Assembly: GCF_003044035.1 (NCBI RefSeq)
Contig: NZ_NVQC01000026.1
Span: forward strand, 39,764 to 71,763
DNA length: 32,000 nt
Direction of reading: 5' to 3'
Source of the DNA: Candidatus Methylomirabilis limnetica
GTDB lineage: Bacteria > Methylomirabilota > Methylomirabilia > Methylomirabilales > Methylomirabilaceae
In this document: piece by piece, positions 1,724 through 31,127 of the stretch
Numbering within the stretch: position 1 is the first letter of the stretch
Layout: each line of letters opens with the position of its first letter
The notes under the pieces: generated by a model
Database searches by the model: none
What the model was told of the DNA's origin: nothing
What the model saw: only the letters and a program-made list of their open reading frames with translations
Made by a program: the position numbers and the translations under genes

Positions 1724-1727
1724 GGTT

Positions 1728-2177
1728 CTATCCTTTGGGCAAGACCACGACCTTGATCCAGAACTCTTCGATCTGGGCGACGATCTTCATGAACTGCGCC
1801 AGATCCACCGGCTTGGTCACGTAGCAGTTCGCATGCAGGTCGTAGGCGCGCAGCACGTCTTCCTCGGCGCGCGAAGTGGTCAGGACCACCACCGGGATGC
1901 GCTTGAGCGCGGGATCGGCTTTCACTTCGGCCAGCACCGCGCGCCCGTCCTTCTTCGGCAGGTTCAGGTCGAGCAGGATCAGATCCGGCCGCGGCGCATC
2001 GCCGAAGCGGCCTTCGCGGCGCAGGAACTGCATCGCCTCGACGCCGTCCTCGACGACGTGGATGCGGTTGCTCATCTTGGCTTCGCGCATCGCCTCGATG
2101 GTGAGGCGGGCGTCGCCAGGGTTGTCTTCCACCAGCAGGATTTCGATCGAACGGGCGTTGACTTCATTGGAACTCAT
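1728..2177 (-). CDS. Single-domain CheY-like response regulator
   Basis: 149-aa ORF with a complete receiver signature: [43 protein letters not shown] Shine-Dalgarno lies a few nt upstream of ATG 2177. Confidence 0.9.
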
Positions 2178-2200
2178 GGGAGTTTCTCCTCAGGTTGCGG

Positions 2201-2396
2201 ATTCAGAATTCAGAATTCAGAATTCAGAATCCAGAATCCTACTACTGACTCCTGCCTCCTGCCTCCTGACTACTGCCTCCTGACTCCTGCCTCCTGACTC
2301 CTGCCTCCTGCCTCCTGACTACTGCCTCCTGCCTCCTGCCTCCTGACTACTGCCTCCTGACTCCTGCCTCCTGACTCCTGCCTCCTGCCTCCTGAA
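2201..2396. repeat. Heptanucleotide tandem array, 28 units in perfect phase
   Basis: Read directly. Plus strand is 4x ATTCAGA, ATCCAGA, ATCCTAC, then 22 units of TCCTGCC/TCCTGAC/TACTGCC, ending in ATTTT. It fills the whole gap between the four-helix-bundle gene and the CheY-like gene. Confidence 0.95.
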
Positions 2397-2404
2397 TTTT
2401 GAAT

Positions 2405-2770
2405 TCAGGAGTCAGAATTCCGGATGGTGCGCGAATAGGCTTCAAGCAGTTTGCTGACTTCTTCAAGCAACGGTATCAATTTGGAAACATCGCCGTAATC
2501 AAGGTCCATGGTGAGAATCAAATAGTATCGGGATTCTTCGAGGGAACCTTGTGCGATGTTGTAAAAGCGGAGTTTGTCTTCTGTTCCGCGTTTCTTGAAT
2601 CCTTCCGCAATGTTTGCCGCAACGGAGACGGCCGCGCGTCGAAATTGAGACGACAGACCATAGGCCTCAGTTCGCGGGAATGTCCAGGACAAACGATAGG
2701 CCGCAAGTACAAACTGGTGGGCCTTTTGCCACACCACCAAGTCCTCAAAGCGCGTCGCCGGCGACCTCAT
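2405..2770 (-). CDS. Four-helix-bundle protein (23S rRNA intervening-sequence protein / Avd-like family)
   Basis: 121-aa ORF. The blocks FEDLVVWQKAHQF, SQFRRAAVSVAANIAEGF and FYNIAQGSLEESRYYL are the hallmark blocks of this family. GAGGAG Shine-Dalgarno upstream of ATG 2770. The gene is visibly more AT-rich than its neighbours. Confidence 0.85.
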   Translation of the reverse strand: MRSPATRFEDLVVWQKAHQFVLAAYRLSWTFPRTEAYGLSSQFRRAAVSVAANIAEGFKKRGTEDKLRFYNIAQGSLEESRYYLILTMDLDYGDVSKLIPLLEEVSKLLEAYSRTIRNSDS

Positions 2771-2789
2771 GCTGACTCCTCAATTTTGA

Positions 2790-2887
2790 ATCCAGAATTC
2801 AGAATTCAGAATTCAGCCTCCTGACTCCTGACTCCTGCCTCCTGACTCCTGACTCCTGACTCCTGCCTCCTGACTCCTGACTCCTGA

Positions 2888-2915
<28 letters not shown>
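2790..2915. repeat. Heptanucleotide tandem array, 18 units, same architecture as 2201-2396
   Basis: Plus strand is ATCCAGA, 2x ATTCAGA, ATTCAGC, then 14 units of CTCCTGA/CTCCTGC/CTACTGC, ending in ATTTT. It overlaps the last ~9 codons and the stop of the histidine-kinase ORF. Confidence 0.95.
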
Positions 2916-5500
<2,585 letters not shown>

Positions 5501-5860: not shown

Positions 5861-6100
5861 TCACCGGTTCAGTGTCGTCATCCGGACAGGGTCATCGAGC
5901 CAGGGTTCGATGACCCTGTCCGCCATCTCAGGCGATGCTCTTGCTGAAGAGACGCGCACACCCTGTTGCCACACTCCGAGATGGCGAAGGATGCGCTCGA
6001 TGACCTGCCGGTCCTCACTGAGCGAGACGAGCCGCCTGTCCCGCTGACACGTCGGACAGAGCAAGAGGATCCGCGTCTCAGACTGTCTTGATGAGTTCAC
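5861..6100 (-). pseudogene. Relic of an IS91-family (rolling-circle) transposase, C-terminal ~70 aa only
   Basis: The 79-aa ORF contains LLLCPTCQRDRRLVSLSEDRQVIERILRHLGVW. This matches the characteristic IS91/IS801/IS1294 C-terminal pattern C-P-x-C-...-R-(I/V)-(I/L)-A-x-I-E-D-x-x-V-I-x-x-I-L-x-H-L-G-L-W. No upstream HUH/Y2 catalytic region is present in any frame. Confidence 0.5.
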
Positions 6101-6200
6101 GCCATGTCTCCCGAGGGGATCCGGCGGGGTTGGTGTTCCGATACATCGATCACCTCCACGGTCGTGCCGGCGGCAAAGAAGGGATCGAGGTAGTGCGGCC

Positions 6201-6225: not shown

Positions 6226-7599
6226 TCAAGCCCCGCCCATGCCTGCTCGATAGGCATCTCCGGATTCGTAGTAATCAAGCCCGGAGTGGTCAAGTACCTC
6301 TTCCCCGACCAGGATGCGCAAGGTATTTGTCAGCTTTAGATGTTGGATGAACAGGTCATGCTCCGGCTGCAGGTCCACTCGGGCCATCGGAGACTTGAAG
6401 TAGAACGAGAGCCACTCCTGAATGCCCGATAATCCGGCCCGTTGGGCCAGGTCCAGAAACAGTGCCAGATCAAGGGCTACCGGCGCTGCCAGGATGGAGT
6501 CCCGACAGAGGAAGTTGATCTTGATCTGCATCGGCTGACCGAGCCAACCGAAGATGTCGATGTTATCCCACCCCTCTTTAGCATCGCCCCGCGGCGGATA
6601 ATATTCAATGCGGACCTTGTGGAACACCTTGCCATACAGATCCGGATAGAGCTCCGGCTGCAGGATCGCGCCCAGCACCGAGCTCTTGCTCACCTCCTTG
6701 GTTCTGAACGATCCCTGATCATCCAGCACCTCGCCGTCCCGGTTCCCCAGGATGTTGGTGGAAAACCAGCCGGTCAGCCCCAGCATCTTGGCCTTCAGCC
6801 CTGGCGCGACCACGGTTTTCAGAAAGGTCTGGCCCGTCTTGAAGTCCTTCCCGGCGATCGGGACGTGCCTTTTGTGAGCGTACTCTACCAGCGCCGGGAT
6901 ATCCACAGCCAGGTTGGGTGAGCCATTCGCAAAGGGCACGCCAGCCGAGATAGCGGCATAGGTATAGATCATGCACGGGGAGATTTCCGGGGCGTTCGCC
7001 TTGAGGCCAGCTTCAAAGGCCTCGATCGTCTCGTGCACGGGGGACGGCTGCATGAAGACCTCTGTTGATCCACACCAGACCATCACGACACGCTGGACCC
7101 CCTCTCTCCGACGGAAGGCCTCGATATCTTCGATCAGCATATCCGCCAGGTGTTTCTTGGTCGGGCCGGCTTTAAGGTGCGGCCCCGACAACCTCCGCAC
7201 ATAGGCCTGCTCGAAGACCGCTGGCCACGGCCTGACGGATTCCAGTTGGTCTTTGACCTGGTCCAGCAACTCCCTGGACAGAACCCCGGCATGGCATGCG
7301 ATCTGATAGGCGTTCTCAGGAAAGATGTCCCAGCCACCGAAGACCAGATCGTTAAGATTAGTGAGGGGGACCACCTCCTTGATCAGGGCAAACCGAGGGT
7401 TGGTCCGCTTGCCCAGGCGCATCCGCTGCATCTGCGTGAGGGAACCGTGCGGTTGGGCAAGACCTTTGTTGATCAGGTGGACCCCTGCGATAAGGGTAGT
7501 GGCCACCGCACCCAACCCCGGGAGCAGCACCCCAAGCGTACCTGTGGCCGGCTTGATCGCCCTGATCAGTTCCGGATAGAGAGAACTCTTTTCGCTCAT
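6226..7599 (-). CDS. ino1: myo-Inositol-1-phosphate synthase
   Basis: A Rossmann start (GVLLPGLGAVATTLIAG) plus conserved blocks ANGSPNLAVDIP, GKDFKTGQT, FSTNILGNRDG and IEYYPPRGDAKEGWDNID. I place the start at ATG 7599 (MSEKSSLYPE...), which overlaps the upstream stop as ATGA. The 110-aa N-terminal extension in the ORF track lies inside the upstream gene and looks non-coding. Confidence 0.9.
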   Translation of the reverse strand: MSEKSSLYPELIRAIKPATGTLGVLLPGLGAVATTLIAGVHLINKGLAQPHGSLTQMQRMRLGKRTNPRFALIKEVVPLTNLNDLVFGGWDIFPENAYQIACHAGVLSRELLDQVKDQLESVRPWPAVFEQAYVRRLSGPHLKAGPTKKHLADMLIEDIEAFRRREGVQRVVMVWCGSTEVFMQPSPVHETIEAFEAGLKANAPEISPCMIYTYAAISAGVPFANGSPNLAVDIPALVEYAHKRHVPIAGKDFKTGQTFLKTVVAPGLKAKMLGLTGWFSTNILGNRDGEVLDDQGSFRTKEVSKSSVLGAILQPELYPDLYGKVFHKVRIEYYPPRGDAKEGWDNIDIFGWLGQPMQIKINFLCRDSILAAPVALDLALFLDLAQRAGLSGIQEWLSFYFKSPMARVDLQPEHDLFIQHLKLTNTLRILVGEEVLDHSGLDYYESGDAYRAGMGGA

Positions 7600-8822
7600 G
7601 CCTTTACCCTTTCCCTGCGTGAGGTCCACAGCAATATGAAGAAAAAGAGCGGCGCACCGAAGGCGGCCAGAACCAAAAACCAATGAGCCTTTCCTAGTGC
7701 CGATAGGATGACGACAAGGTAGATGAAATCCCGCTTTGCGAGGGCATCGGCAAGAGTGATAAGGCGGGATGGGGCCTCGGAGTTGGTGACGGAGGTAAAG
7801 AGCGGCCCCTCTGAGACCTTGTTCCGCATGGTCTGTCGGTAGACGAGACCGGCTGACAGGAGGGTGCCGATCACCGCGGAAACCGCTAAGACCAAGGGGG
7901 CAGGAGCCTTGATGGCCATCTGCCATCCCAAGCCGATGCAGACAAAGACTACCGAGTGTACAACATTATCTCCCCAGAAGTCCAGGATGCCGCCCAGGCG
8001 AGACTCCAGATACTTGAGCCTGGCGATCTCCCCATCGCAGCCGTCCAGGATCGAATGCAAGAGGAACAGGAGCGCGCCGGTCAGTTGATACGCTGGTATG
8101 GACGAGAGAAAGAACAGGGCCCCCAATAGACCTATCGCCACGCTTACGGCTGTCATCTGGTTCGGGGTGATGTCCGTGCGTACGAGGCATCGGGTGACTG
8201 CCAGTGAAATCTTTCGCTCGAAATGCCTCGACATGAAGCCTTCCGTATCTTTGACCAGACCGCGCAGGAGCCACCGCTCGGCACTACGAAGATCCGCCCG
8301 GTTCGAGACCCGGACCCAGCCGGCACCGTCTATGAGAGCGCCCACTCTTTGGTAGGTCCGCTCCAGTCCGGAGAACACAGACAGATCATCGTCAGCACGC
8401 CCAATCATTGACAGAAGGACCTTGGGGTCAGCCGTCTCAACGGCAGCGATTCCGCTGGCTGGGACATGCATCGTCTCAGCGCGTAACGGCATCTCGGTGA
8501 GATGCGTGAGCAGCGATGGGCGCAGGAGAAGGTCAGAGGCGAGTACCAGGATACGGCTGGAGTGCGGGTGGCCCGTCTGAGTGCAACGCACAGGCAGGTC
8601 GGTGAGCTTCTCTGGAGGAAGCAGTACTGCCCGCGTTCCTGTCAAGAGCCTCGTGAGTCCTGGCCAACCGGTATCCACCACTAGAATCTCATGGCAGCCC
8701 GCTCGGGAGGCGACCATCACCATACGCCGAAGCAACGGGATCCCGGCTACAACGGTATCCGGGGAGATCTCTCCCGAGCCCTTCGTCATCATGATCAGGA
8801 CCGTGGCTCCCTTCATGACCAT
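7596..8822 (-). CDS. IPCT/DIPPS-type fusion: nucleotidyltransferase-like N-domain + CDP-alcohol phosphotransferase membrane domain
   Basis: The C-terminal half has the full CDP-alcohol transferase signature D-G-x2-D-G-x2-A-R-x8-G-x3-D-x3-D (LDGCDGEIARLKYLESRLGGILDFWGDNVVH) and several TM helices. The linker KDTEGFMSRHFERKISLAVTRCLVRTDITPNQMT is typical of the IPCT/DIPPS architecture. The N-domain resembles a MobA-like NTP transferase (AGIPLLRRMVMVASRAGCHEILVV), but its G-x-G-x-R loop reads KGSGEI. Confidence 0.8.
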   Translation of the reverse strand: MVMKGATVLIMMTKGSGEISPDTVVAGIPLLRRMVMVASRAGCHEILVVDTGWPGLTRLLTGTRAVLLPPEKLTDLPVRCTQTGHPHSSRILVLASDLLLRPSLLTHLTEMPLRAETMHVPASGIAAVETADPKVLLSMIGRADDDLSVFSGLERTYQRVGALIDGAGWVRVSNRADLRSAERWLLRGLVKDTEGFMSRHFERKISLAVTRCLVRTDITPNQMTAVSVAIGLLGALFFLSSIPAYQLTGALLFLLHSILDGCDGEIARLKYLESRLGGILDFWGDNVVHSVVFVCIGLGWQMAIKAPAPLVLAVSAVIGTLLSAGLVYRQTMRNKVSEGPLFTSVTNSEAPSRLITLADALAKRDFIYLVVILSALGKAHWFLVLAAFGAPLFFFILLWTSRRERVKA

Positions 8823-8835
8823 ACGTTCACACTGC

Positions 8836-8997
8836 GTAACTACTCAGGTAGATAGGCTGAAGGCTGAAGGCTTTTAGGGGAAAGTCATGCGTGATCATAC
8901 AAAACTCCGAAAAGGTCTTGAATGGCTCGATTCGTGCCTTGCGAGATAATTTAGAACCTTCAGCCTTCAGCCTTCAGCCTAAACACCTTGTAGTTAT
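8836..8997 (+). mobile_element. MITE-like element with heptamer-containing terminal inverted repeats (copy A)
   Basis: The left end is GTAACTACTCAGGTAGATAGGCTGAAGGCTGAAGG. The reverse complement of the right end is ATAACTACAAGGTGTTTAGGCTGAAGGCTGAAGGCTGAAGG. It is flanked by a perfect 8-bp direct repeat CACACTGC (8828-8835 and 8998-9005). A homologous copy in the opposite orientation sits at 20712-20840. Confidence 0.8.
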
Positions 8998-9035
8998 CAC
9001 ACTGCAATGTAAGGGCGCCGCTTGCTGCGCCCTCT

Positions 9036-9059
9036 GGGCAGGGCAAGCCCTGCCCCTAC
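9036..9059 (-). repeat. REP-like GC hairpin GTAGGGGCAGGGCTTGCCCTGCCC
   Basis: Stem GGGCAGGGC / GCCCTGCCC directly after the stop of the oxidoreductase gene. A related copy is at 22131-22185 on the other strand. Confidence 0.7.
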
Positions 9060-10138
9060 ACGGACAAATGCTGGCCCCCTCTGGCGTGCGATTCCTTGGC
9101 ACGGTGCAGAAGTTGTACGCAGTGCGACGCCATGGCGAGGTTCTCTCCGCTCCGCTCAGTGTCCGAAATCTCCTGTAGAAACTCGTCCCTCACCTGGCAG
9201 AACCACTCCGGATGGTGGGAGCCCTGCGAGAGCGGCTGTTCGAATGTCCAGTCCTGCTCGTCCCCGTCGCTTTTTAGAATCAGGGTGCCATCCTCTATCC
9301 GGATGGCCCCACGGGTCCCCTCGATCACAGCGCTATTGCCACGTGAAGACGCGGCCCACGTCAGAAAGATATCGGCCACTGCCTCAGGAAAGTTCACCTG
9401 AACGGTCGCCGTATCCTCAACGGGCCATTCTGGATGCACTCGCTTCTCGAGCGTGGCGGATATCGTCCTCGGGTCTTGACAAAGCCAGCGTAGGATGATG
9501 TACAGGGCGTGCCAACCGTGGTCAAGCAGGATTCCGCCACCCGCCATAGCCGGATCGAGCCGCCAGTTGCCGTGCGCTGCTCCACCTTGACTGGGCTCAG
9601 GACAGCCCTCGACGGAGCCTATGGTGAGCTCAGTCGAACCGCTCAGGACAGGCCCAACCGAGATTGATGGTTCACGACGGAGTACCTGCCAGCTTATGTG
9701 CCGCACTGTCCCGATCTGCCCCTCCAGGATTAAGTCCGTTGCCTTTTTGATGATCGGCGCGTACAGCCAGTTATGGACGGTATGCAGGACTCGCCCGCTT
9801 TCTACTTGCGCACGCCTCACGAGTCGCAGCTCATCGGGAGAGAGCACGAGAGGCTTTTCACATAAGACATGGAGTCCCCGCTGGAGGGCCAGATGGGTGA
9901 TAGATGCGTGGGTTCCGGGGGGCGTGCAGATATCGATAAAATCGAGGGGCTCGGAGGCAAGCAGCGCCTCGACCTCAGTGTAGAGCCTCGCCTTTGGAAG
10001 ACGCCCTCTGGCCTCGACGAGCCGCGGCTCGATGGCATCAGCGGCGGCAACGATCTGGGCCTGCTCGCACCCCTCCCATCCGGGCAGATGCCCATTTACC
10101 GCTACATTTCCCAGGCCGATGATGGCGCCTCTCAACAT
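9056..10138 (-). CDS. Gfo/Idh/MocA-family NAD(P)-dependent oxidoreductase (inositol-dehydrogenase-like)
   Basis: 360-aa ORF with N-terminal Rossmann GAIIGLGNVAVNGHLPG, the family EKP motif (HVLCEKPLV), and C-terminal GGGILLDHGWHALY. Confidence 0.85.
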   Translation of the reverse strand: MLRGAIIGLGNVAVNGHLPGWEGCEQAQIVAAADAIEPRLVEARGRLPKARLYTEVEALLASEPLDFIDICTPPGTHASITHLALQRGLHVLCEKPLVLSPDELRLVRRAQVESGRVLHTVHNWLYAPIIKKATDLILEGQIGTVRHISWQVLRREPSISVGPVLSGSTELTIGSVEGCPEPSQGGAAHGNWRLDPAMAGGGILLDHGWHALYIILRWLCQDPRTISATLEKRVHPEWPVEDTATVQVNFPEAVADIFLTWAASSRGNSAVIEGTRGAIRIEDGTLILKSDGDEQDWTFEQPLSQGSHHPEWFCQVRDEFLQEISDTERSGENLAMASHCVQLLHRAKESHARGGQHLSV

Positions 10139-10146
10139 CTCTTAAA

Positions 10147-10293
10147 GCAGGGTTTAGGGTACAGGGTTTAGGGTTTAGGGAAAAAGTCGATGATTTGCCT
10201 CATCCCTATACCCTTATACGCACACCCTATACCCTGTCCCCTTTACCCTCCACCCTATACCCTGTCTTCATCCCCTATACCCTGTCTTTTCTA
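10147..10293. repeat. Heptamer-armed palindromic element: (GGGNNNN)n left arm, (CCCNNNN)n right arm
   Basis: The left arm GGGTTTAGGGTACAGGGTTTAGGGTTTAGGG spans 10150-10180. The right arm, from 10204 to 10286, is made of CCCTATA / CCCTGTC / CCCTTTA / CCCTCCA units. The ends are AAAGCAGGGT and ACCCTGTCTTTTC. The right end supplies the last codons and the stop of the aminotransferase gene. Confidence 0.9.
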
Positions 10294-11593
10294 ATTCGGC
10301 AAAGGCCTCATCGAGAATAGCCAGGCCTTCCAATGCCTGCGCCTCGGTGACGAGAAGCGGCGGATTGATCCGGATATTGTAGGAATAGCACATCGCGAGT
10401 AGTCCCCTTCGGAGGCAGGCCTGAAACAACCTTTGCGTCATTGGCTTCGGAAGCGGCTCCTTGGTCTGCCTATCCTTGACCAGTTCGATGCCCAGCAAGA
10501 GCCCTCTGCCCCGCACGTCGCCCACAAACGGGTATTTCTCCTTCATCACTTCCAGCCGTTTCAGCATGACCGCGCCGACACGCTTGGCATTCGCCACAAG
10601 CCGATCCTTAACGATTACCTCGAGGGTAGCCAGCCCCGCTGTTGCGGCTAGCGGATTGCCTCCATAGCTTGAGGAGCTTCCGCTCGGATTACCAAAGGGC
10701 TTGCTCGCCATCAGCTCTTGTGTCGAAATCACCCCGCTGACAGGGAACCCGCCTCCCATCCCCTTGCCGACCGTCATCACGTCCGGTACAATCGGCTCGT
10801 GATCGCACCCCCACATCGATCCGGTGCGGCCGAAGCCTGTGAGCATCTCGTCGGCGATCAGCAGGGCATCATTCTCCTTGGCAATCGTCTGTACCGCGCT
10901 CAAAAACCCCTGGGGCGGAATTACATTTCCGGCAGTCCCCTGGATCGGTTCCACGATGATCGCAGCGATCTCGCCCTGGGTCTGATACTGGATCACTTGG
11001 CGCAGGAAATCAGCGCAGGCAATACCGCAGTCGGGATAACGGAGCTTCAAGGGACAGCGATAGCAGTTGGCGTACGGGGCGCTGTAGAGGCCAGGCATGA
11101 AGGGTCCCATCTGCTTCTTGAAGTCATCCCCCAACAGCCCAAGGACCCCGCCGGTCTTGCCGTGGAACCCGCCCCAGAACCCGACAAACTCAAACTTCTT
11201 AGTCGCCGACTTGGCGAGTCGGAAGGCAGCCTCGACCGCCTCCGCCCCGCTGGAATACATCTGGATCCGCTTGAGCCCTTTCGGCGTGACCGATGCTAGC
11301 AGCGCAAGAAACCGGGCCCGGTTCTCAGTGGTGAAGCTACCGAACGTCAGCCGCTCGATCTGGGCCTTCATCGCCTCGACGTAGTGCGGGTGCGTATACC
11401 CGATGCTCCCCACACCGATCCCAGCCATGAAATCGAGATATCGATTGCCGTCCTCATCGATGAGGGTACACCCTTCCCCTCTCGCCATCGCCAGCCCGGA
11501 ATACAGCGCAATCGACTGTAGACCCGGTGCCATATGGCGCGCCTCACGGGTGAAGATCGCCCTGGACCGCTTTCCAGGAATATTTCGCTTCAT
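10268..11593 (-). CDS. Class-III (PLP-dependent) aminotransferase
   Basis: Motifs GFWGGFHGKTGG, IVEPIQGTAGNV, LIADEMLTGFGRTG and MTVGKGMGGGFP (Schiff-base Lys). I place the start at ATG 11593 (MKRNIPGKRS...), which overlaps the stop of the upstream ATP-grasp gene as ATGA. Confidence 0.9.
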   Translation of the reverse strand: MKRNIPGKRSRAIFTREARHMAPGLQSIALYSGLAMARGEGCTLIDEDGNRYLDFMAGIGVGSIGYTHPHYVEAMKAQIERLTFGSFTTENRARFLALLASVTPKGLKRIQMYSSGAEAVEAAFRLAKSATKKFEFVGFWGGFHGKTGGVLGLLGDDFKKQMGPFMPGLYSAPYANCYRCPLKLRYPDCGIACADFLRQVIQYQTQGEIAAIIVEPIQGTAGNVIPPQGFLSAVQTIAKENDALLIADEMLTGFGRTGSMWGCDHEPIVPDVMTVGKGMGGGFPVSGVISTQELMASKPFGNPSGSSSSYGGNPLAATAGLATLEVIVKDRLVANAKRVGAVMLKRLEVMKEKYPFVGDVRGRGLLLGIELVKDRQTKEPLPKPMTQRLFQACLRRGLLAMCYSYNIRINPPLLVTEAQALEGLAILDEAFAELEKTGYRG

Positions 11594-12474
11594 AGGAGCG
11601 CTCCTTGTCTGAGGCGACGTAGCAACCACGTAGCGATCTGGGGAGCAGCTTCCTCGCGAAACAACGCAAACGAAGGCCACGCATTAATGTCGATGAGGAA
11701 GAACTCCCCGGTAGGCGTGATGATGGCATCACCTCCGTACACCTCAAGCCCGATGGTGGAAGCCGCCTGCTGGGTAACGGTCTGTAATGCCTCCTCCGAA
11801 AAGGGATACCGAGCCAGATCCTGATCCCGGTGATAGAACCACTTAAACCATGTGTCCTTCCGATGGCCTGTAAGAGACTTTCCGATCCCGTAGAACTTGA
11901 TCAAATCTCCCGGAATGTGCTGCTGCAGCACCACGTGGGAGATTCCCCTGCCGTAGAGCGCTGCCAGAACCCTCCGGAGATCCTCCAAAGATGATACGAG
12001 TTCAACATCCCCGGATTGGGTATTGTGGACATCGGCTCGCTTGACCCAGATCGGGAAAGAGCCTGTCGGAAGCTGTGGCGAAGGATGATCAGGGTTGAAC
12101 GAGTTGCTCGATATGACCTGGCTCCTCGGGATCGGAATCGCTGAGGCGGCGAGAAGTGGAATCATTCGGTCCCGATAGGTGTTCAGCACGGCCTGAAGAG
12201 GATTGACATGTGGGATAGCTTGCATCTCAATCGGCTCAAGAGAACGTAGGGTTTCGACCCGCTCGCACATTAAAAATACAAGCGACGGCAAAGGGTCTGG
12301 CCGAAGCCCAGTCGAAGGATCGGCTACTCCGAGCTCCTCCGGCGTCTTGAGGTGTACCTGGTAGCCGGCCGCTTCGACATGTTTGGCCACGAGCCTCAGG
12401 ATCTCAGCATCATCGAATTCCCGACCCGGCGAGTGCTGCTGTTCACGATAAATCCCCCAAAGGTACGGCATCAT
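11590..12474 (-). CDS. ATP-grasp fold enzyme (ligase or ITPK1-like inositol-phosphate kinase)
   Basis: 294-aa ORF with FPIWVKRADV (ATP Lys), VVLQQHIPGDLIKFYGIG, and a Mg-binding block GGDAIITPTGEFFLIDINAWPSF that carries D-x-N rather than the usual E-x-N. Confidence 0.7.
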   Translation of the reverse strand: MMPYLWGIYREQQHSPGREFDDAEILRLVAKHVEAAGYQVHLKTPEELGVADPSTGLRPDPLPSLVFLMCERVETLRSLEPIEMQAIPHVNPLQAVLNTYRDRMIPLLAASAIPIPRSQVISSNSFNPDHPSPQLPTGSFPIWVKRADVHNTQSGDVELVSSLEDLRRVLAALYGRGISHVVLQQHIPGDLIKFYGIGKSLTGHRKDTWFKWFYHRDQDLARYPFSEEALQTVTQQAASTIGLEVYGGDAIITPTGEFFLIDINAWPSFALFREEAAPQIATWLLRRLRQGALL

Positions 12475-12492
12475 GAGGTACTGCCTCCGCTT

Positions 12493-13242
12493 TTAAAACA
12501 GGGTAGAGGGTAGAGGGTGTAGGGTAGACCCTGTCTTTTCATGTTCTTGTACAAGAGTTTCGGCCAGGTGAAGATCCTCGGCGCGATCGACGTCGATGAC
12601 CTGGTCAATGACCACCCCATAGACCGGGATCCCGCGATCAACCATCCAGATCAGGAAGTCACGAAGCCGATCCAGTGTAGACGGGTGAGGGGCTTCGGCA
12701 AAGATTGAGCCGGGCACAAGGTAGAGTCCGGCGGTTACGACGTCACCCGAGTCACCCCCTATTCCCGTTACGCGCCCGGAAGGATCGAGGGTCACCCAGA
12801 GAGGCTTCTCGTCGGCCACGAATGGCGTCACGGCCAAAACGACGGAAGCCTGACTGCAGCGCCGGGCCTGATCGACGAATCGGCGGAAGGCCGGTTCCGG
12901 ACAGATCCAGTCCACGGTAGACATGAGGATGGGGCCTGGACCGGATCGCCCACCAACCTCCCAGAAGCTTTCGTACGATGAGCGTGTAGTTTTCACGATG
13001 CATTGGACGTCGAGATTCGGGAAACGCTCCTGAATGAATGTGGCGCACTCCCGGTCGTCCTCATTGAAGATGATCCGTAGCTGCGTGATACCGACCTTCA
13101 CAAAATTGCTCATCACCCGCTCGATCAACGGGATACCTGCGACCGGCACCATCGGCTTCGGCATCCTCAAGCCGTCCCGTTTCAACCGGGAACCTTCCCC
13201 GGCCGCAATGATGCCCCCTATCAGGGTTGTGGGCGCGTTCAC
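12493..13242 (-). CDS. Sugar/alcohol-phosphate nucleotidyltransferase (candidate inositol-1-phosphate cytidylyltransferase)
   Basis: Intact signature GGIIAAGEGSRL followed by PKPMVPVAGIPLIERV. The GTG start overlaps the HAD stop as GTGA. The C-terminal 13 codons are encoded by GGGTAGA heptamers. Confidence 0.85.
   Translation of the reverse strand: MNAPTTLIGGIIAAGEGSRLKRDGLRMPKPMVPVAGIPLIERVMSNFVKVGITQLRIIFNEDDRECATFIQERFPNLDVQCIVKTTRSSYESFWEVGGRSGPGPILMSTVDWICPEPAFRRFVDQARRCSQASVVLAVTPFVADEKPLWVTLDPSGRVTGIGGDSGDVVTAGLYLVPGSIFAEAPHPSTLDRLRDFLIWMVDRGIPVYGVVIDQVIDVDRAEDLHLAETLVQEHEKTGSTLHPLPSTLF
12497..12540. repeat. Compact heptamer element: 4x GGGTAGA/GGGTGTA followed by CCCTGTCTTTTC
   Basis: AAACAGGGTAGAGGGTAGAGGGTGTAGGGTAGACCCTGTCTTTTC. 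It has the same end sequences as the 10147-10293 element and lies inside the 3' end of the nucleotidyltransferase CDS. Confidence 0.9.
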
Positions 13243-13949
13243 AGGAGTATCTCCCGAAGATCTGCTAGCGACCTGATCATAGGGTCACCCGGGCAACAGG
13301 GTACGGCAGCACCGGAGTGGTCTGATACCAGCCAGATATGGGGCATCCCGAGACCTTTCGCCCCTTCCATGTCTCGAGGCAATGAGTCGCCGACAAATAC
13401 CGCCTCTCGTGGATCGAGTTGTAACTGCATCAGCGCGGCCTGAAAGATCCTAGGGTCCGGCTTGGTGAACCCGACGCGCGCCGAATCAACCATTACACTC
13501 ATGAGCGGGGTCAGCCCACTCTCAAGACAGACGCGTTCGAGATTGCCATAGAAGTTCGAGATGATGCCGAGTCGAAATCGTACTGACAGCTCCCGCAGGA
13601 TCGTCAGGTTAGAACGGATCTTATCCAGTGAGTCCTGAAGAAACCTGTCGCACAGACGCGACGCTACCCTCGCATCGGCCATATTCAACGCCTCCAGTAC
13701 GCCCGTGACCTGGAACAGGAGGCTCTCTCGAAACGAGTAGTCCGAGAATCCCCGCGCCACCAGAGCATCATCGCCAACATAGTAGGCTTGATCGTATCGA
13801 TCCCGCTCTATCTCCATATGCTCGGCGAGATAGAACGGATAGAATCTATCTTTCCAGGCGACTCCGTCGGCATCAAGGGTTCCCCCGAAATCGAAGAGAA
13901 TAGCTTTTGGCAACTCTTTTACCATCCGGCTTCGCGTCATCGCGTTCAT
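13239..13949 (-). CDS. HAD-superfamily hydrolase/phosphatase
   Basis: Motif I AILFDFGGTLD, motif II LGIISNF, motif III FTKPDPRIF, motif IV VFVGDSLPRDMEGA. The second Asp of motif I is Gly. The first ATG (13949) lies inside a repeat array, so ATG 13925 (MVKELPKAILFDF) is a plausible alternative start. Confidence 0.8.
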   Translation of the reverse strand: MNAMTRSRMVKELPKAILFDFGGTLDADGVAWKDRFYPFYLAEHMEIERDRYDQAYYVGDDALVARGFSDYSFRESLLFQVTGVLEALNMADARVASRLCDRFLQDSLDKIRSNLTILRELSVRFRLGIISNFYGNLERVCLESGLTPLMSVMVDSARVGFTKPDPRIFQAALMQLQLDPREAVFVGDSLPRDMEGAKGLGMPHIWLVSDHSGAAVPCCPGDPMIRSLADLREILL

Positions 13950-14033
13950 TGCGTCATTGCGTTCATTGCGTCATTGCGTCGTACGCTATAGACGCTATAG
14001 ACGCTATAGACGCAATAGCCGCTATAGACGTAC
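13934..14033. repeat. Paired tandem arrays with 8/9-nt period around a CGTACG centre
   Basis: The left arm alternates GCGTTCATT and GCGTCATT units. The right arm is GCTATAGAC x3, GCAATAGCC, GCTATAGAC. The GCGTC/GACGC cores of the two arms are complementary. Confidence 0.9.
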
Positions 14034-15587
14034 TCAGAGCTGCTCCATGAAGGAGGCGATCTCGTCGAGCTTGACGCCTCGAACGGCGATCTCGGGCGTA
14101 TAGATGACCTCGTCTGCCGCCCAGACCAAGGTTTCCCTTACATCCTTACCGATCGCGATGATATTAGAGAGAATCGTGTGGATATTATCGTTGATCCGTA
14201 CCGTATTGGGTTTCAGCGGCGTCGTGATCCGTCCGTCCTTAATGATGTACGAGTCACCAACCACTGTGCAGGTGAAGTCGCCGGCCCGTAACCCGTTGAT
14301 AGGATACGTATACCAGATCCGCCCGATGAGTAGGCCGTTCTTTACGGTGGCGATGAGCTCATCGAGGCTTTGGTCTCCACCCTGTACGACAGCATTGGTT
14401 GAGGCGACTGCGGTTTGGACACCGAACTGTCGACCGCCACCAGCCCAGGATCGGAAACCGTTCCGCGGCACGATTGCGCTGCCGTGCTGGTTCGGGTCCA
14501 CCCCCAGCTTCTCTGTACCCCTGGGATCTCTTACTATACGCTGCTGTTCGTAATAGTTGGTGAGCAGCCCTACCAATCTGCCCCGCTGGATCAGGCGTGT
14601 TTTCCCGGTCGGTAGTCCTTCGCAGGTGATCCCCTTGCTGCCCATCAACCCACGCTTATTGCCATGGTCGTAGAGGGTGAGATGCTTCGATGCGACTCGC
14701 TTCCCGAGCCGTCCCATGAACGGAGAGCTATCGCTGTAGAAGGTGCTGAGGCTGAGAGAAGGCAGGATCAGATTGTTCAGGAGGTCGGCCACAGGCTGAC
14801 GCCCGAAGATTACCGTATACTCCCCACCCTTGATCCGCTCTCCGCCAATCGCCGCGAGAGCGTTGTGTGCGGCTTCTACACCGGCGCCGTCAGTAAACTG
14901 GTCCAGGCGGGTGCCGGCGGAGCAGCCGCTGCCCTTGGAGGCCTTGGCCTCGACCATTGCGGTGATGAAGGCCATGATCAGGGTCGATTCGTCGGTCTGG
15001 ACCTCGGGCATGGCGGTCGAGGCGATGGCGATCCGCTCCTGCTGGATGGTCACATCGCCACCTACAATGAGGCCTAATGCACTGATCTGGCCCTTACCGC
15101 CCGCCAGTTCGGCAAGTTGAGGAGAAGCCGCAAAGGTCTTTAGTCCCCCCTGCAAAACCTTCCAGCCGACCTCAACCAGATCCTCGTCCCGAATCTTCAT
15201 CAGTTTAGGGTCGTGGTAGCGGCGGAGCCTTCGCCGCTCACCCGTGGCTCTCGGCAGCGACGAGAATTCGGGATCGACGACGGCGCCGCGCCTGGCCTTC
15301 CCGAGGGCTCTTTTTACCCCATCGAGGCTTAGATCGCTCGGTTCGCTGCCAAACCCGATCGTAACACCGGCCTCTGTCTTGAAAACCGCCGCAATTCCAA
15401 GGCCGTACGATTCACTTGATTTCGGCTCTTCGACGCCATTGCATGGGATGTGCGAGGTATAGTTCAGCCGGGCTAAGAGGTTACCGTTACTTGACGCAAA
15501 GACCTCGGCCTCGGCCACCTGCTCGGCTGACCCTAGATACTCCAAGGCTTGCGTCACAGCCTTAGCAAGTTCAGCGGTTGAGATCAT
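14034..15587 (-). CDS. pmbA: PmbA/TldE-family metallopeptidase partner subunit
   Basis: 517-aa ORF with overall PmbA/TldD-family similarity, including the C-terminal NGFRSWAGG...IGRIWYTYPINGLRAGDFT..RGVKLDEIA blocks. It has no HExxxH motif, as expected for the TldE partner. AGGAGA Shine-Dalgarno 7 nt upstream of the ATG. Confidence 0.8.
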   Translation of the reverse strand: MISTAELAKAVTQALEYLGSAEQVAEAEVFASSNGNLLARLNYTSHIPCNGVEEPKSSESYGLGIAAVFKTEAGVTIGFGSEPSDLSLDGVKRALGKARRGAVVDPEFSSLPRATGERRRLRRYHDPKLMKIRDEDLVEVGWKVLQGGLKTFAASPQLAELAGGKGQISALGLIVGGDVTIQQERIAIASTAMPEVQTDESTLIMAFITAMVEAKASKGSGCSAGTRLDQFTDGAGVEAAHNALAAIGGERIKGGEYTVIFGRQPVADLLNNLILPSLSLSTFYSDSSPFMGRLGKRVASKHLTLYDHGNKRGLMGSKGITCEGLPTGKTRLIQRGRLVGLLTNYYEQQRIVRDPRGTEKLGVDPNQHGSAIVPRNGFRSWAGGGRQFGVQTAVASTNAVVQGGDQSLDELIATVKNGLLIGRIWYTYPINGLRAGDFTCTVVGDSYIIKDGRITTPLKPNTVRINDNIHTILSNIIAIGKDVRETLVWAADEVIYTPEIAVRGVKLDEIASFMEQL

Positions 15588-15612
15588 CGGTAAGTCTCCT
15601 GGAACACAACAA

Positions 15613-15680
15613 GGGTTTAGCGGTTTAGCGGTTAGAACCCACCGGCCATGCTTTTCCTCTACCCTATACCCTCTACCCTT
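15613..15680. repeat. Short tandem arrays: GGTTTAGC x2-3 and CCCTATA/CCCTCTA units
   Basis: GGGTTTAGCGGTTTAGCGGTTAGAACCC, then a spacer, then CTTTTCCTCTACCCTATACCCTCTACCC. It sits between the TldD stop and the PmbA start. Confidence 0.85.
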
Positions 15681-17249
15681 TCAAGCTCCGGTGAGGATGG
15701 CGCGGCTGCGCATGGTGGGGCCCCCATTACCGAGCCGCTTGGTCTGCATCGGCTGGCCCTTGCCGCAATTGGGGATCGGGTAGAGACGGAAGTCGTTCCC
15801 TACCGCATCCACCTTCATCAAGTAGTCCTTCGTATCGGCCATGATCCCGCCGTTACAGAACAACTCTCCGATCTGCCCATGCTTGATCTCATAGACCTTC
15901 ATCGCGGAGATTCGGAAGTTTTCGCGCGATTCAGCGATCGAGGGAGTCCGGTGCCCTACGAGGTAGTAGCCATGGGGGATCTCCCTGATAATCTCATGGG
16001 GGTCCCGTTCGCCAGGACTGAACACCGTATTTGACATCCTGATCAAAGGAACCATCGAGGCGTCAGTAGCCGTGTACGACCCGTTCGGCGGGATACCCAG
16101 GATGGCAGCGGTCTGGCGGCTGTTCATGAAGCCGGTGAAGATCCCGTGGTCGATGTGCATAACCTTTCTCCCTGATGTACCTTCGTGATCATACTTATAA
16201 TGGCCGTACCCGGGAAGAGAGGGGTCGGAGAAGGCTGAGACGAGGGGAGAAGCGATCGGTTTGCCCATCTGATGTTCCTGGAGGTCCCGGAAAAGCCAGC
16301 TTCGGCCGGCGTAAGAAGCCTCCATCTTCAACGCGCGATCCAGCTCGGCCGGGTGGCCGACAATCTCGTGGACCGTCAGGGTGTTGTAGTGGGGGTCGGT
16401 GACAACCACCATCTCGCGGTCAGTGGCCTTGAGCGGCCTGGCATTGCACAGGCTCACCGCGTCACCCGTGAGGTTCATACAAAAGGTCCGGAAATCCGGA
16501 AATTGGATGAACTCCTCTTGCACGCCTTTGGTTAACACCTCCCACCCGCGCTGGTGGCCCATGTAATCGTACAGCTCCTGCGTGCCGGATTTGCCGTCGG
16601 TCACGATGAAACACGTGCCCTGAGTCAGAGCAAAGCACTGGTCGATGTTGGCACCCTCAGAGCTACACAGCAACTCCCGGCTCAACAGGGTAAAGGCCGA
16701 GATGAACGTATACTTGACATGAGGGTCGAGCGCAAGCGTGCTTTTGGAGATCTCGGTCGTCATGGCGACGATCTCGTCTAAGGGGACGGAGAGGGGATCG
16801 ACCTCAAAGCGCGCCGGAACGATATCCTGATGAATCTCGATGGGCGCGAGGGTAGTGCTGATCAGGGTATCCCCCAGAGGACTGAACGCCTCCCGTGTTG
16901 CGCTCTTGCGCTCGGCGTTGGCCAGTGCCCGATGATGCGCATGACGGAGCCCGCCCTTCACGACCTGCGCTAGTCGATCTATGTCGGCTATTCCGAGCGA
17001 TTGCCCGAAATAGCCCGGCGCGACCATCCCGTTACCGGACAGAGCGCGGATACCGACCGCAAAGCCATAGTCCCTGGTGCTATGTTTACTCCCACCATTC
17101 TCTGCTGCGGCCGATTGTCCTTCATCGACCTGTACGCGAATGTCCACATAGCGGCAGCCGCGAAGGGTCTTCCTGTAGCGGGTGGCGAGATCGAAGATCA
17201 TCGGCTTGATCTGATCGATGATCTGTACTGTCATTGGTTGTGTTGACAT
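15681..17249 (-). CDS. tldD: TldD-family zinc metallopeptidase
   Basis: Zinc motif TVHEIVGHPAELD (HExxxH) plus the family-typical C-terminus (GNDFRLYPIPNCGKGQP). I prefer ATG 17249 (MSTQPM...), which has a GGGGAAG Shine-Dalgarno-like stretch upstream. The track start at 17276 is the alternative. Confidence 0.88.
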   Translation of the reverse strand: MSTQPMTVQIIDQIKPMIFDLATRYRKTLRGCRYVDIRVQVDEGQSAAAENGGSKHSTRDYGFAVGIRALSGNGMVAPGYFGQSLGIADIDRLAQVVKGGLRHAHHRALANAERKSATREAFSPLGDTLISTTLAPIEIHQDIVPARFEVDPLSVPLDEIVAMTTEISKSTLALDPHVKYTFISAFTLLSRELLCSSEGANIDQCFALTQGTCFIVTDGKSGTQELYDYMGHQRGWEVLTKGVQEEFIQFPDFRTFCMNLTGDAVSLCNARPLKATDREMVVVTDPHYNTLTVHEIVGHPAELDRALKMEASYAGRSWLFRDLQEHQMGKPIASPLVSAFSDPSLPGYGHYKYDHEGTSGRKVMHIDHGIFTGFMNSRQTAAILGIPPNGSYTATDASMVPLIRMSNTVFSPGERDPHEIIREIPHGYYLVGHRTPSIAESRENFRISAMKVYEIKHGQIGELFCNGGIMADTKDYLMKVDAVGNDFRLYPIPNCGKGQPMQTKRLGNGGPTMRSRAILTGA

Positions 17250-17311
17250 CGTCTTTGCTTCCCCTATCCCCAGCATTGGTTACGTTCTTTTCAAGGACGG
17301 TAAAGCGCTAG

Positions 17312-19260: not shown

Positions 19261-19443
19261 TTGAATCCACTGGGAGTTCATTCCCCGCAGCTTGCCGCGA
19301 GTTCGTCATACCGGCGGACCCCGGATCGGAGTCCGGGGCAGGCGCCGGTATCCAGAGGGCCCGACTGGATTCCGTGTCAAGCACGGAATGACGGGCCAGA
19401 ACAGAAGACGATACCCCGCAGCTTGCTGCGGGGTAGTTCATTC
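19261..19443 (+). mobile_element. MITE/REP-like ~180-bp element, family 2 (copy C)
   Basis: Collinear with 30946-31127. The shared blocks are TTGAATC..GGTTCATTCCCCGC.GCTTGCCGC, GCCGGTATCCAGAGGGCCCGACT.GATTCC and GTGTCAAGCACGGAATGACGGGCCAGAACAGAAGACGATACCCCG.AGCTTGCTGCGGGGTAGTTC.TTC. It produces the well-known spurious AGIQ / RGNDG-type peptides. The terminal CCCCGCAGC segments are inverted. Confidence 0.85.
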
Positions 19444-20659: not shown

Positions 20660-20711
20660 GCTATCACTCAAGGCTGACACAACCTCTTCACGTGATGACT
20701 GGTAACTACTC

Positions 20712-20840
20712 AAGGTGTTTAGGCTGAAGGCTGAAGGTTCTGAATTATCTCGCAAGGCACGAATCAAGACCGTTCTCGGTTTCTACCCCTAAAAGCCTTC
20801 AGCCTTCAGCCTACCCACCTGAGTACTTACGATGGATGCT
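20712..20840 (-). mobile_element. MITE-like element with GGCTGAA/TTCAGCC arms (copy B, inverted relative to copy A)
   Basis: Its reverse complement aligns with 8836-8997 through both arms and through the core GGTCTTGA..ATTCGTGCCTTGCGAGATAATT.AGAACC. The core has one ~30-nt indel. The flanking 8-mers GATGACTG and GATGGATG match at only 5 of 8 positions. Confidence 0.8.
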
Positions 20841-30945: not shown

Positions 30946-31127
30946 TTGAATCTGCTGGGGGTTCATTCCCCGCGGCTTGCCGCAAGCTCGTCATACCGGC
31001 GGAAGCCGGTATCCAGAGGGCCCGACTAGATTCCCCCGTATCAAGTACGGGGCAGGCGTGTCAAGCACGGAATGACGGGCCAGAACAGAAGACGATACCC
31101 CGTAGCTTGCTGCGGGGTAGTTCGTTC
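30946..31127 (+). mobile_element. MITE/REP-like ~180-bp element, family 2 (copy D)
   Basis: Collinear with 19261-19443. It differs by two reciprocal hairpin-sized indels. Confidence 0.85.

Follow-up and report, generated by a model that had tools for sequence, protein, structure and literature searches.

A conserved operon of Candidatus Methylomirabilis limnetica points to an inositol-derived membrane lipid and includes an ATP-grasp family without a Pfam model

Results

A compact operon with MIPS, CDP-alcohol phosphotransferase and ATP-grasp genes

We analyzed a 32,000-nt stretch of the Candidatus Methylomirabilis limnetica genome (contig NZ_NVQC01000026.1; hereafter, the window), which carries a seven-gene operon at 6226-13949 on the minus strand. 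Its predicted products are a HAD phosphatase, a nucleotidyltransferase, an ATP-grasp enzyme, a class-III aminotransferase, a Gfo/Idh/MocA oxidoreductase, a CDP-alcohol phosphotransferase and myo-inositol-1-phosphate synthase (MIPS). All seven open reading frames (ORFs) are co-directional in the ORF listing (Table 1). Their coordinates give 4-nt overlaps at 13239-42, 11590-93 and 7596-99 and an 18-nt gap at 12475-12492; the two larger gaps hold heptamer-repeat palindromes only. A first-pass annotation, made from the letters of this DNA, had described the same seven co-directional genes, their coupling, the 18-nt gap and the repeat-only content of the larger gaps, and the ORF coordinates bear out this layout. 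The gene families that it named, six through Pfam and the ATP-grasp enzyme, the exception, through an AlphaFold model and Foldseek, also stand, and so does its inositol theme. Scans for promoters and terminators gave no signal above chance, and an exact-protein look-up of the transferase returned short contigs only.

Table 1. Genes and repeat elements of the operon region, in window coordinates
Feature	Coordinates	Strand	Description
HAD-IA phosphatase-like	13239..13949	-	236 aa; first gene of the operon
Stand-alone nucleotidyltransferase	12493..13242	-	249 aa; GTG start
ATP-grasp enzyme	11590..12474	-	294 aa; family without a Pfam model
Class-III (omega) aminotransferase	10268..11593	-	441 aa from ATG at 11593; same length in relatives
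Gfo/Idh/MocA NAD(P) oxidoreductase	9056..10138	-	360 aa
CDP-alcohol phosphotransferase	7596..8822	-	408 aa; cytosolic N-domain and membrane C-domain
Myo-inositol-1-phosphate synthase (MIPS)	6226..7599	-	457 aa; last gene of the operon
Palindromic heptamer-repeat element (AGGGTTT / CCCTATA arrays)	10139..10267		intergenic; aminotransferase/oxidoreductase junction
Palindromic repeat element (AGGCTGA / CCTTCAG arrays)	8823..9055		intergenic; oxidoreductase/transferase junction
8-, 9- and 17-nt tandem repeats	13934..14030		TldD/PmbA-HAD interval; overlaps the HAD gene over its first 16 nt

The operon is conserved across about seven phyla

We scanned one genome per species and searched the best 80 loci with the seven window proteins by tblastn. 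Relatives of the ATP-grasp enzyme occur in 291 species genomes, and its homologues are named, for example, Candidatus Methylomirabilis and NC10, which places the window in a methane-oxidizing member of the Methylomirabilota (NC10). Counted over the loci whose sequence reaches far enough for the gene in question, HAD is present in 71/71, the nucleotidyltransferase in 75/75, the aminotransferase in 70/72, the oxidoreductase in 64/66 and the transferase in 62/62. Among six-gene loci, 57/60 show the identical order HAD, nucleotidyltransferase, ATP-grasp, class-III aminotransferase, Gfo/Idh/MocA oxidoreductase, CDP-alcohol transferase. The first-pass annotation had made conservation beyond this genome a test of its proposal, and the 291 genomes and the shared order provide it. 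The loci are labelled Methylomirabilota/Rokubacteria, Elusimicrobia, Nitrospirae, Verrucomicrobia, Acidobacteriota (including Thermoanaerobaculia) and Binatia, and the labels span about seven phyla.

MIPS adjoins the operon in 23/62 of these close loci and was found in 46/80 distant loci (described below). It is adjacent in the NC10, Elusimicrobia, Nitrospira, Verrucomicrobia, Acidobacteria, Ignavibacteria and Bacteroidales versions, and usually not at the adjacent position in Rokubacteria. Many Rokubacteria loci (L006, L015, L017 and others) have a multi-pass membrane protein of ~524 aa with a CopD match (PF05425) at ~+4.3 kb from the ATP-grasp gene. It sits between the CDP-alcohol transferase and a gene of the LPG_synthase_TM family, which is the position of MIPS in other lineages.

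ATP-grasp belongs to a core to which the amination pair is added

An exhaustive search for the ATP-grasp family at E <= 1e-3 yielded 940 clusters at 50% identity, and a scan of metagenomes that started from distant members of the family gave 80 loci. About 69/80 of these distant loci are core-only, with MIPS, nucleotidyltransferase, ATP-grasp, CDP-alcohol transferase, HAD and sometimes LPG_synthase_TM; 8/80 have both aminotransferase and oxidoreductase, and three short loci show the aminotransferase only. The pair is likewise absent from the core-only clusters L087 and L088 and from a close relative (L012, 65% identity), which has HAD, nucleotidyltransferase, ATP-grasp, CDP-alcohol transferase and MIPS. 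Oxidoreductase and aminotransferase are always gained or lost as a pair, and they occur in two different gene orders within MIPS-containing operons.

Gene fusions join ATP-grasp to the same partners. The nucleotidyltransferase and ATP-grasp are fused in seven representative clusters (P0123, P0125, P0191, P0210, P0215, P0239 and P0244), and we also found HAD-nucleotidyltransferase-ATP-grasp fusions and, once, an ATP-grasp-CDP-alcohol transferase fusion. Two fusion contexts are without aminotransferase, oxidoreductase and MIPS and contain CDP-alcohol transferase, LPG_synthase_TM and HAD. Because ATP-grasp is fused to core genes and is present in core-only clusters without the amination pair, gene content assigns it to the core, outside the amine branch, and marks aminotransferase plus oxidoreductase as an add-on module. 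The core so defined comprises the nucleotidyltransferase, ATP-grasp, CDP-alcohol transferase, HAD and a predicted flippase-like protein (LPG_synthase_TM). This arrangement departs from the first-pass picture of two pathway halves with an ATP-grasp enzyme alongside.

Gut and rumen samples are the main source of core-only loci, with ATP-grasp homologues named Bacteroides, Prevotellaceae and Tannerellaceae and always annotated as 'hypothetical protein'. An extended version belongs to a cultured organism, Melioribacter roseus P3M-2 (about CP003557.1:1460267-1471467), whose 12 genes encode nucleotidyltransferase, MlaE, MlaF, MlaD, two ATP-grasp proteins, aminotransferase, CDP-alcohol transferase, oxidoreductase, LPG_synthase_TM, HAD and MIPS. 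Its ATP-grasp paralogues lie in tandem (8298-9970 of locus L169), as do those of L099 (7153-8870), which are 76% identical to each other. Judged from these sequences, the duplication is recent and, here, found only in Melioribacter-like Ignavibacteria (L099, L169), with one copy in other lineages. The Melioribacter papers that we read make no mention of inositol or polar lipids.

Family assignments of the core enzymes

MIPS matches Pfam NAD_binding_5 (1.2e-95) and Inos-1-P_synth (7e-30), an assignment that is unambiguous at the level of sequence. The stand-alone nucleotidyltransferase matches Pfam NTP_transf_3 (1.1e-7), and the signature AAGxGxRL...PKP is intact, as seen in PDB alignments to MurU-type enzymes. 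Few NCBIfam models cover most of this protein; one that does is NF041135, the equivalog model of bifunctional IPCT/DIPPS, the IPCT domain of which aligns with residues 11-231 at E 2.7e-7, at 29.9 bits far below the cut-off of 580. We propose that the enzyme is a cytidine triphosphate (CTP):inositol-phosphate cytidylyltransferase.

The transferase matches Pfam CDP-OH_P_transf at 3e-10 and NTP_transf_3 at only 0.003. Its best PDB matches are AF2299 (4.7e-22) and IPCT/DIPPS (2.8e-20), followed by phosphatidylinositol-phosphate (PIP) synthases (1e-9 to 6e-7), and it scores 107 bits against NF041135, where the cut-off is 580; by sequence, the resemblance to IPCT/DIPPS is at family level only. In the membrane domain, which is of the DIPPS/AF2299 type, the motif D-x2-D-G-x2-A-R...G-x3-D-x3-D is intact. 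The N-terminal ~165 residues have only a 'VAGIPLL' segment in common with the stand-alone nucleotidyltransferase, and hhalign aligns the two with 44% probability and E 2.4e-4, starting past the catalytic signature. This domain is probably a degenerate nucleotidyltransferase fold.

For HAD, Pfam gives Hydrolase (1.1e-17) and HAD_2 (1.9e-14), and NCBIfam matches are at subfamily level only (TIGR02247, YihX-like). The HAD motifs are invariant in seven orthologues from NC10-like, Rokubacteria-like, Bacteroides-like gut, M. roseus and other metagenomic loci. Motif I reads D-F-G-G-T-L-D, with Gly at Asp+2. We considered this Gly as an argument against a phosphatase and rejected it, because HAD matches YihX-like models and YihX-type HAD-IA phosphatases likewise have Gly at this position.

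The ATP-grasp family lies between inositol-phosphate kinases and RimK-type ligases

The window ATP-grasp protein has no Pfam match at E <= 0.01. Its AlphaFold model (predicted local distance difference test score 85.5) matches many ATP-grasp structures in Foldseek at a probability of 1.00, with Ddl, RimK and ArgX as the best matches (E about 1e-15), and K145, D249, D262 and N264 are invariant across 54 diverse family members. The predicted structure thus confirms membership in the ATP-grasp superfamily.

Within the superfamily, a profile of the family matches PDB entries 7drm (1e-6), ITPK4 (6e-6), a RimK-like ligase (2.6e-5) and ITPK1 (1.2e-3). The ITPK4 and ITPK1 alignments cover the C-terminal 100 residues only and have a K-F-Y strand, near-invariant in the family, and a D-x-N metal motif in common with the family; aligned RimK and 7drm show E-x-N where the family and the ITPKs show D-x-N. 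The Pfam kinase model Ins134_P3_kin (PF05770), which the first-pass annotation had put forward as a check, gives the window protein 14 bits against a gathering threshold of 23, with sub-threshold matches in 7/54 members. The ligase models fall short as well (TIGR00768, 16.3 bits against a cut-off of 143; Pfam RimK sub-threshold in 8/54 members). Taken together, single-sequence searches, two profiles against PDB, per-member Pfam searches and Foldseek show comparable sub-threshold similarity to ITPKs and to RimK/Ddl-type ligases.

Biochemical context bears on this choice. In the MIPS product the phosphate sits at D-3, and phosphatidylinositol-type lipids are linked via D-1. Because of this, a D-1-linked lipid made via cytidine diphosphate (CDP)-inositol would need a second phosphorylation and a later dephosphorylation, and the requirement for both a kinase and a phosphatase would explain the presence of ATP-grasp and HAD in the core. 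Kinase-nucleotidyltransferase fusions are common. ITPK1 phosphorylates Ins(3)P, and archaeal ITPK1 homologues flank MIPS genes (PMC6900528). The ITPK-like K-F-Y and D-x-N features, the link of ITPK1 to MIPS, the nucleotidyltransferase fusions and the presence of the family in clusters of the plain inositol-phosphoceramide type lead us to favor, by a little over an even chance, a putative inositol-phosphate kinase over a ligase.

The oxidoreductase and aminotransferase form a candidate amination module

The oxidoreductase matches Pfam GFO_IDH_MocA (5.7e-19) and its C3 domain (3.8e-21). Against the iolG equivalog (TIGR04380) it scores 61.3 bits, below the cut-off of 355, over the N-terminal Rossmann half only, and its PDB neighbors are a mixture of generic sugar and cyclitol dehydrogenases. 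The aminotransferase is the best-conserved protein of the operon, with a median identity of 72% across phyla. Its match to Pfam Aminotran_3 (1.8e-103) agrees with the first-pass assignment to class III rather than to the DegT type (the DegT/DnrJ/EryC1/StrS fold was not found), and the nearest solved structures are gamma-aminobutyrate (GABA)-type aminotransferases.

An oxidoreductase followed by an aminotransferase is the standard route from a hydroxyl to an amino group, as in StrI/StsC of streptidine synthesis and GnnA/GnnB of lipid A. We propose that the oxidoreductase is a cyclitol dehydrogenase making a keto group for amination, and that the aminotransferase acts on an inosose or inosose phosphate. 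That the product would be an inosamine we infer from genomic context.

Linked genes point to a membrane lipid

LPG_synthase_TM is present in most loci, either directly upstream of HAD (L004, L005, L008, L010, L013 and L055) or downstream, past the CopD-like membrane protein. MlaC and MMPL genes adjoin the operon in several Methylomirabilota loci, and in Ignavibacteria, including M. roseus, MlaE, MlaF and MlaD are encoded inside it. The hosts are labelled NC10, Rokubacteria, Nitrospira, Acidobacteria, Verrucomicrobia, Elusimicrobia and gut Bacteroidales; none is labelled a thermophile. Since LPG_synthase_TM, MlaEFD, MlaC and MMPL genes of relatives lie next to or inside the operon, gene linkage points to a membrane lipid as the product rather than a solute of the di-myo-inositol phosphate (DIP) type.

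Repeats and rearrangement in the window

The two repeat elements inside the operon would form stable structures as RNA: -114.7 kcal/mol for 8823-9055 (z -9.2 vs shuffled controls) and -54.8 kcal/mol for 10139-10267 (z -5.0). Because the same junctions measure only 12 and 14 nt, respectively, in the relative L004, this comparison identifies both repeats as insertions into an otherwise compact operon. The palindrome at 8835-8990 has a second, inverted copy ~11.7 kb away at 20711-20831, and their 93-100% identity suggests a mobile repeat resembling a miniature inverted-repeat transposable element. Heptanucleotide tandem repeats crowd the intergenic regions of the window (2201-2394, 2788-2915, 8854-8980, 10149-10263, 12500-12528, 15656-15679 and 20721-20812), with units including CTGCCTC x21, CTCCTGA x14, AGGCTGA and CCCTATA. 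They are often inverted pairs that give long hairpins, similar to cyanobacterial short tandemly repeated repetitive (STRR) or repetitive extragenic palindromic (REP) elements.

Repeats also reach into operon genes. The 3' end of the nucleotidyltransferase gene (12500-12528; the last ~15-20 codons, window 12493-12540, …GSTLHPLPSTLF) consists of the heptamer AGGGTAG x4, and the protein has 249 aa vs 229 aa in L004, a difference that seems to stem from a repeat insertion lengthening the reading frame. At the other end of the operon, the repeats at 13934-14030 occupy the site between TldD/PmbA and HAD that holds the LPG_synthase_TM gene in close relatives, and this flippase-like gene appears to have been deleted from this genome or relocated within it. 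Locus L009 is apparently also without LPG_synthase_TM at this site, where its TldD/PmbA and HAD matches lie only ~420 nt apart. A dispersed repeat of ~180 nt has two copies in the window (19261-19443 and 30946-31127; 88-97% identity) and contains the hairpin TACCCCGCAGCTTGCTGCGGGGTA.

The GC content is 0.65-0.68 across much of the first 5 kb of the window, 0.56 in the repeat-rich stretch at 2-3 kb, and 0.56-0.61 for most of the window beyond 5.5 kb. The high-GC first 5 kb encodes a histidine kinase and two ORFs without a Pfam match. Synteny with relatives, which carry MlaC and MMPL downstream of MIPS, breaks at 1-5500. The GC shift and the synteny break suggest that 1-5500 is a rearrangement or an acquired segment. 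At ~5950-6140 on the minus strand, frameshifted fragments (translations …ETWRELIKTV and …LLCPTCQRDRRLVSLSEDRQVIERILRHLGVWQQG…) bear what we take to be a resemblance to the C-terminus of IS91/Y2-type transposases; they are probably the remains of a transposase, lying immediately downstream of MIPS where synteny breaks.

Directly upstream of the operon lie two tandem genes of TldD/PmbA-family metallopeptidases (14034-17276). Synteny of these genes, along with CinA and LigT, is limited to Methylomirabilis-like relatives. We considered the pair as part of the system and rejected it, as a linkage confined to Methylomirabilis-like loci reflects lineage synteny.

Discussion

Relation to known inositol pathways

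The closest described system is a putative alternative cluster for inositol lipids, described in Bacteroides vulgatus and Prevotella veroralis, both of which make inositol phosphoceramide (Heaver et al., 2022; PMC9246714). That cluster encodes MIPS, a protein with an NTP-transferase domain, a phosphatidyltransferase of the CDP-alcohol type and a hydrolase of the HAD family, and an LPG-synthase-like gene lies close by; its authors propose a CDP-inositol route, state that the function is unconfirmed and mention no ATP-grasp protein (PMC9246714). An LPG-synthase-like gene also accompanies the B. thetaiotaomicron-type inositol cluster, again described without ATP-grasp (PMC9246714). The window has all four of the enzyme genes, and Bacteroidales loci such as L131 combine the gene content of the alternative cluster with an ATP-grasp protein of the window's family; a tblastn search with the window proteins picks up their nucleotidyltransferase, CDP-alcohol transferase, HAD and MIPS. 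The two differ in that the window lacks an LPG-synthase-like (PF03706) neighbor, which most of its relatives have, whereas the alternative cluster lacks aminotransferase and oxidoreductase. In addition, the Bacteroides transferase has 304 aa and no N-terminal cytosolic domain, compared to 408 aa in the window. By gene content, then, the core of the window is that of the alternative cluster, a link made through shared content and Bacteroidales homology. The first-pass annotation had known of no described pathway with both halves and an ATP-grasp enzyme in one operon. The content of the core was already on record (PMC9246714), while the amination module and ATP-grasp are undescribed, and the open-access literature that we searched contains no description of the extended cluster. 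The core belongs to a known though uncharacterized type of cluster; what is new here is the amination module, together with the hidden ATP-grasp.

Other pathways resemble the operon in part. The four enzyme functions of the DIP pathway (MIPS, IPCT, DIPPS and phosphatase; solved structures IPCT/DIPPS, 4MND, and AF2299, 4O6M) are all predicted here, and AF2299 shares the architecture of the window transferase, a cytosolic N-domain followed by six transmembrane helices. However, the operon has a separate cytidylyltransferase gene, the domain fused to its transferase looks degenerate, its hosts are not labelled as thermophiles, lipid-transport genes are linked to it, and it encodes three extra enzymes. 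The CDP-diacylglycerol pathway to phosphatidylinositol (PIP synthase plus PIP phosphatase; mycobacteria, B. thetaiotaomicron BT_1523/BT_1525) likewise uses the MIPS product, an enzyme of the CDP-alcohol phosphotransferase family and a final phosphatase, and in Bacteroides it too has an LPG-synthase-like gene. Its donor is CDP-diacylglycerol and its acceptor Ins3P, so that no soluble cytidylyltransferase or ATP-grasp is needed, and PIP synthases are distant matches of the window transferase. Aminocyclitol pathways (StrI/StsC plus inosamine kinase; rhizopine) run from dehydrogenase to aminotransferase to kinase on myo-inositol made by MIPS and a phosphatase. Their aminotransferases are of the DegT/StsC type, and what these pathways yield is a soluble antibiotic or signal rather than a CDP-activated head group of a lipid; at the sequence level, no membership of the window enzymes in them is seen. 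Finally, ATP-grasp shares its fold and, in the C-terminal 100 residues, the K-F-Y strand and D-x-N motif with ITPK1 and ITPK4, but its N-terminal two thirds fit RimK-type ligases equally well.

Proposed pathway

We give roughly an even chance to a model in which the operon builds the head group of a membrane phospholipid via a Kennedy-type CDP-inositol route combined with amination; all substrates, the order of steps and the kinase role in this model we infer from the gene families and their context. MIPS would convert glucose-6-phosphate into 1D-myo-inositol-3-phosphate. ATP-grasp, acting as an ITPK-like kinase, would add a second phosphate, probably at D-1, or re-phosphorylate the ring once HAD has removed the first. 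The stand-alone nucleotidyltransferase would use CTP to activate that phosphate, giving a CDP-inositol species, from which the DIPPS/AF2299-type transferase would pass the phospho-cyclitol to a lipid alcohol, for example diacylglycerol; HAD would strip the leftover phosphate. At some soluble stage along this route, the oxidoreductase would oxidize one ring hydroxyl and the aminotransferase would turn the ketone into an amine. The finished lipid would carry inosamine phosphate (amino-deoxy-inositol) in its head group and would be zwitterionic, where phosphatidylinositol is anionic. In relatives, the LPG_synthase_TM flippase-like protein and Mla/MMPL may carry the lipid to the outer leaflet or the outer membrane.

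Several observations weigh against this model. Flippase, Mla and MMPL genes are all missing from the window itself (LPG_synthase_TM, PF03706, was not found in the 32 kb by tblastn at E 1e-6). DIPPS and AF2299, the closest relatives of the transferase, use soluble substrates; a literature search on AF2299 did not turn up what those substrates are. Foldseek puts the ligases Ddl, RimK and ArgX first for ATP-grasp, and the whole-domain profile fits RimK-type ligases about as well as ITPKs. No Pfam or NCBIfam hidden Markov model puts the oxidoreductase or the aminotransferase, which is GABA/acetylornithine-like, in an inositol-specific family. The taxon labels come from metagenome-assembled genomes, and a few (Patescibacteria, Nitrosotalea) look like binning errors. 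Lastly, we found no lipid with an inosamine head group, and hence no chemical precedent, in the open-access literature searched; descriptions elsewhere are possible.

Alternative readings

ATP-grasp could instead, within the same lipid pathway, be a carboxylate-amine/hydroxyl ligase that acylates the cyclitol, using an amino acid or some other acid. The head group would then be an N-acyl or aminoacyl inosamine, or an ester in core-only clusters, and LPG_synthase_TM would flip it as the flippase domain of MprF flips lysyl-phosphatidylglycerol. All top 50 Foldseek matches are ligases, RimK-type matches extend over the whole ATP-grasp core (1.6e-4 to 2.6e-5), and databases name the family RimK/glutathione-synthase-like. 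There are precedents as well: GnnA/GnnB turn an ester site into an amide site with an oxidoreductase and an aminotransferase, and in Campylobacter the amidation of the capsule brings together an aminotransferase, an amide ligase of the ATP-grasp type and a HAD phosphatase. A ligase nevertheless sits less well with the occurrence of ATP-grasp in most clusters without the amine-forming pair, with a metal motif that is D-x-N as in ITPKs and not the E-x-N of the aligned ligases, and with the nucleotidyltransferase fusions, which fit a kinase better. Moreover, Bacteroides and Prevotella with core-like gene content are reported to make plain inositol phosphoceramide, with no acylated form reported, and LPG_synthase_TM accompanies the B. 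thetaiotaomicron-type cluster without ATP-grasp, which ties it to inositol lipids and not to aminoacylation (PMC9246714). We regard the ligase as unlikely, if the most serious of the alternatives.

The two other alternatives are considerably less probable. The oxidoreductase and aminotransferase may act off the inositol ring, making another amino-alcohol phosphate or amino acid (serinol-phosphate-like, for example) that serves as acceptor or co-substrate and is joined to inositol phosphate. The aminotransferase is indeed nearest to GABA, acetylornithine and omega-aminotransferases, the oxidoreductase is generic, and most Rokubacteria loci lack an adjacent MIPS; yet at least two independent gene orders have the pair inserted in operons that contain MIPS, the usual substrates of Gfo/Idh/MocA enzymes are secondary alcohols of sugars and cyclitols, with inositol and scyllo-inositol dehydrogenases among the matches, and no gene is present that supplies another polyol. 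We therefore consider this reading improbable. Slightly less probable still is a soluble phosphodiester of the DIP type with one ring aminated, formed from CDP-inositol and inositol or inosamine phosphate and then dephosphorylated by HAD. All four DIP functions are present, with the transferase nearest to DIPPS/AF2299 and the nucleotidyltransferase nearest to the IPCT domain. What makes such a solute unlikely is the NF041135 score of the transferase, far below its cut-off, the groundwater, soil and gut lineages that carry the operon in place of DIP-bearing hyperthermophiles, and the linkage to LPG_synthase_TM, MlaEFD, MlaC and MMPL. The DIP pathway also needs no ATP-grasp, and a cluster with the gene content of the core is linked to producers of inositol sphingolipids (PMC9246714). 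Of the product options that the first-pass annotation had left side by side, the evidence thus favors the lipid head group over the DIP-type compatible solute.

Implications

Inositol lipids are regarded as rare in bacteria. We tentatively extend the lipid model to a broader claim, in which we have distinctly less confidence than in the model itself: that an inosamine-phosphate lipid occurs in at least seven phyla (NC10 methanotrophs, Rokubacteria, Nitrospira, Acidobacteria, Verrucomicrobia, Elusimicrobia and Ignavibacteria), and that an ITPK-like ATP-grasp kinase enables the CDP-inositol route and would also be required in the alternative pathway of gut Bacteroides and Prevotella. The extended 12-gene operon of the cultured M. 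roseus makes this prediction testable, and the unannotated ATP-grasp in gut Bacteroidales clusters is a concrete, testable proposal for the unconfirmed biochemistry of the alternative inositol lipid pathway. If the lipid model is right, abundant lineages of soil, groundwater and wastewater, including nitrite-dependent methanotrophs and nitrite oxidizers, would have a zwitterionic inositol-derived lipid, which would affect membrane charge and could serve as a biomarker.

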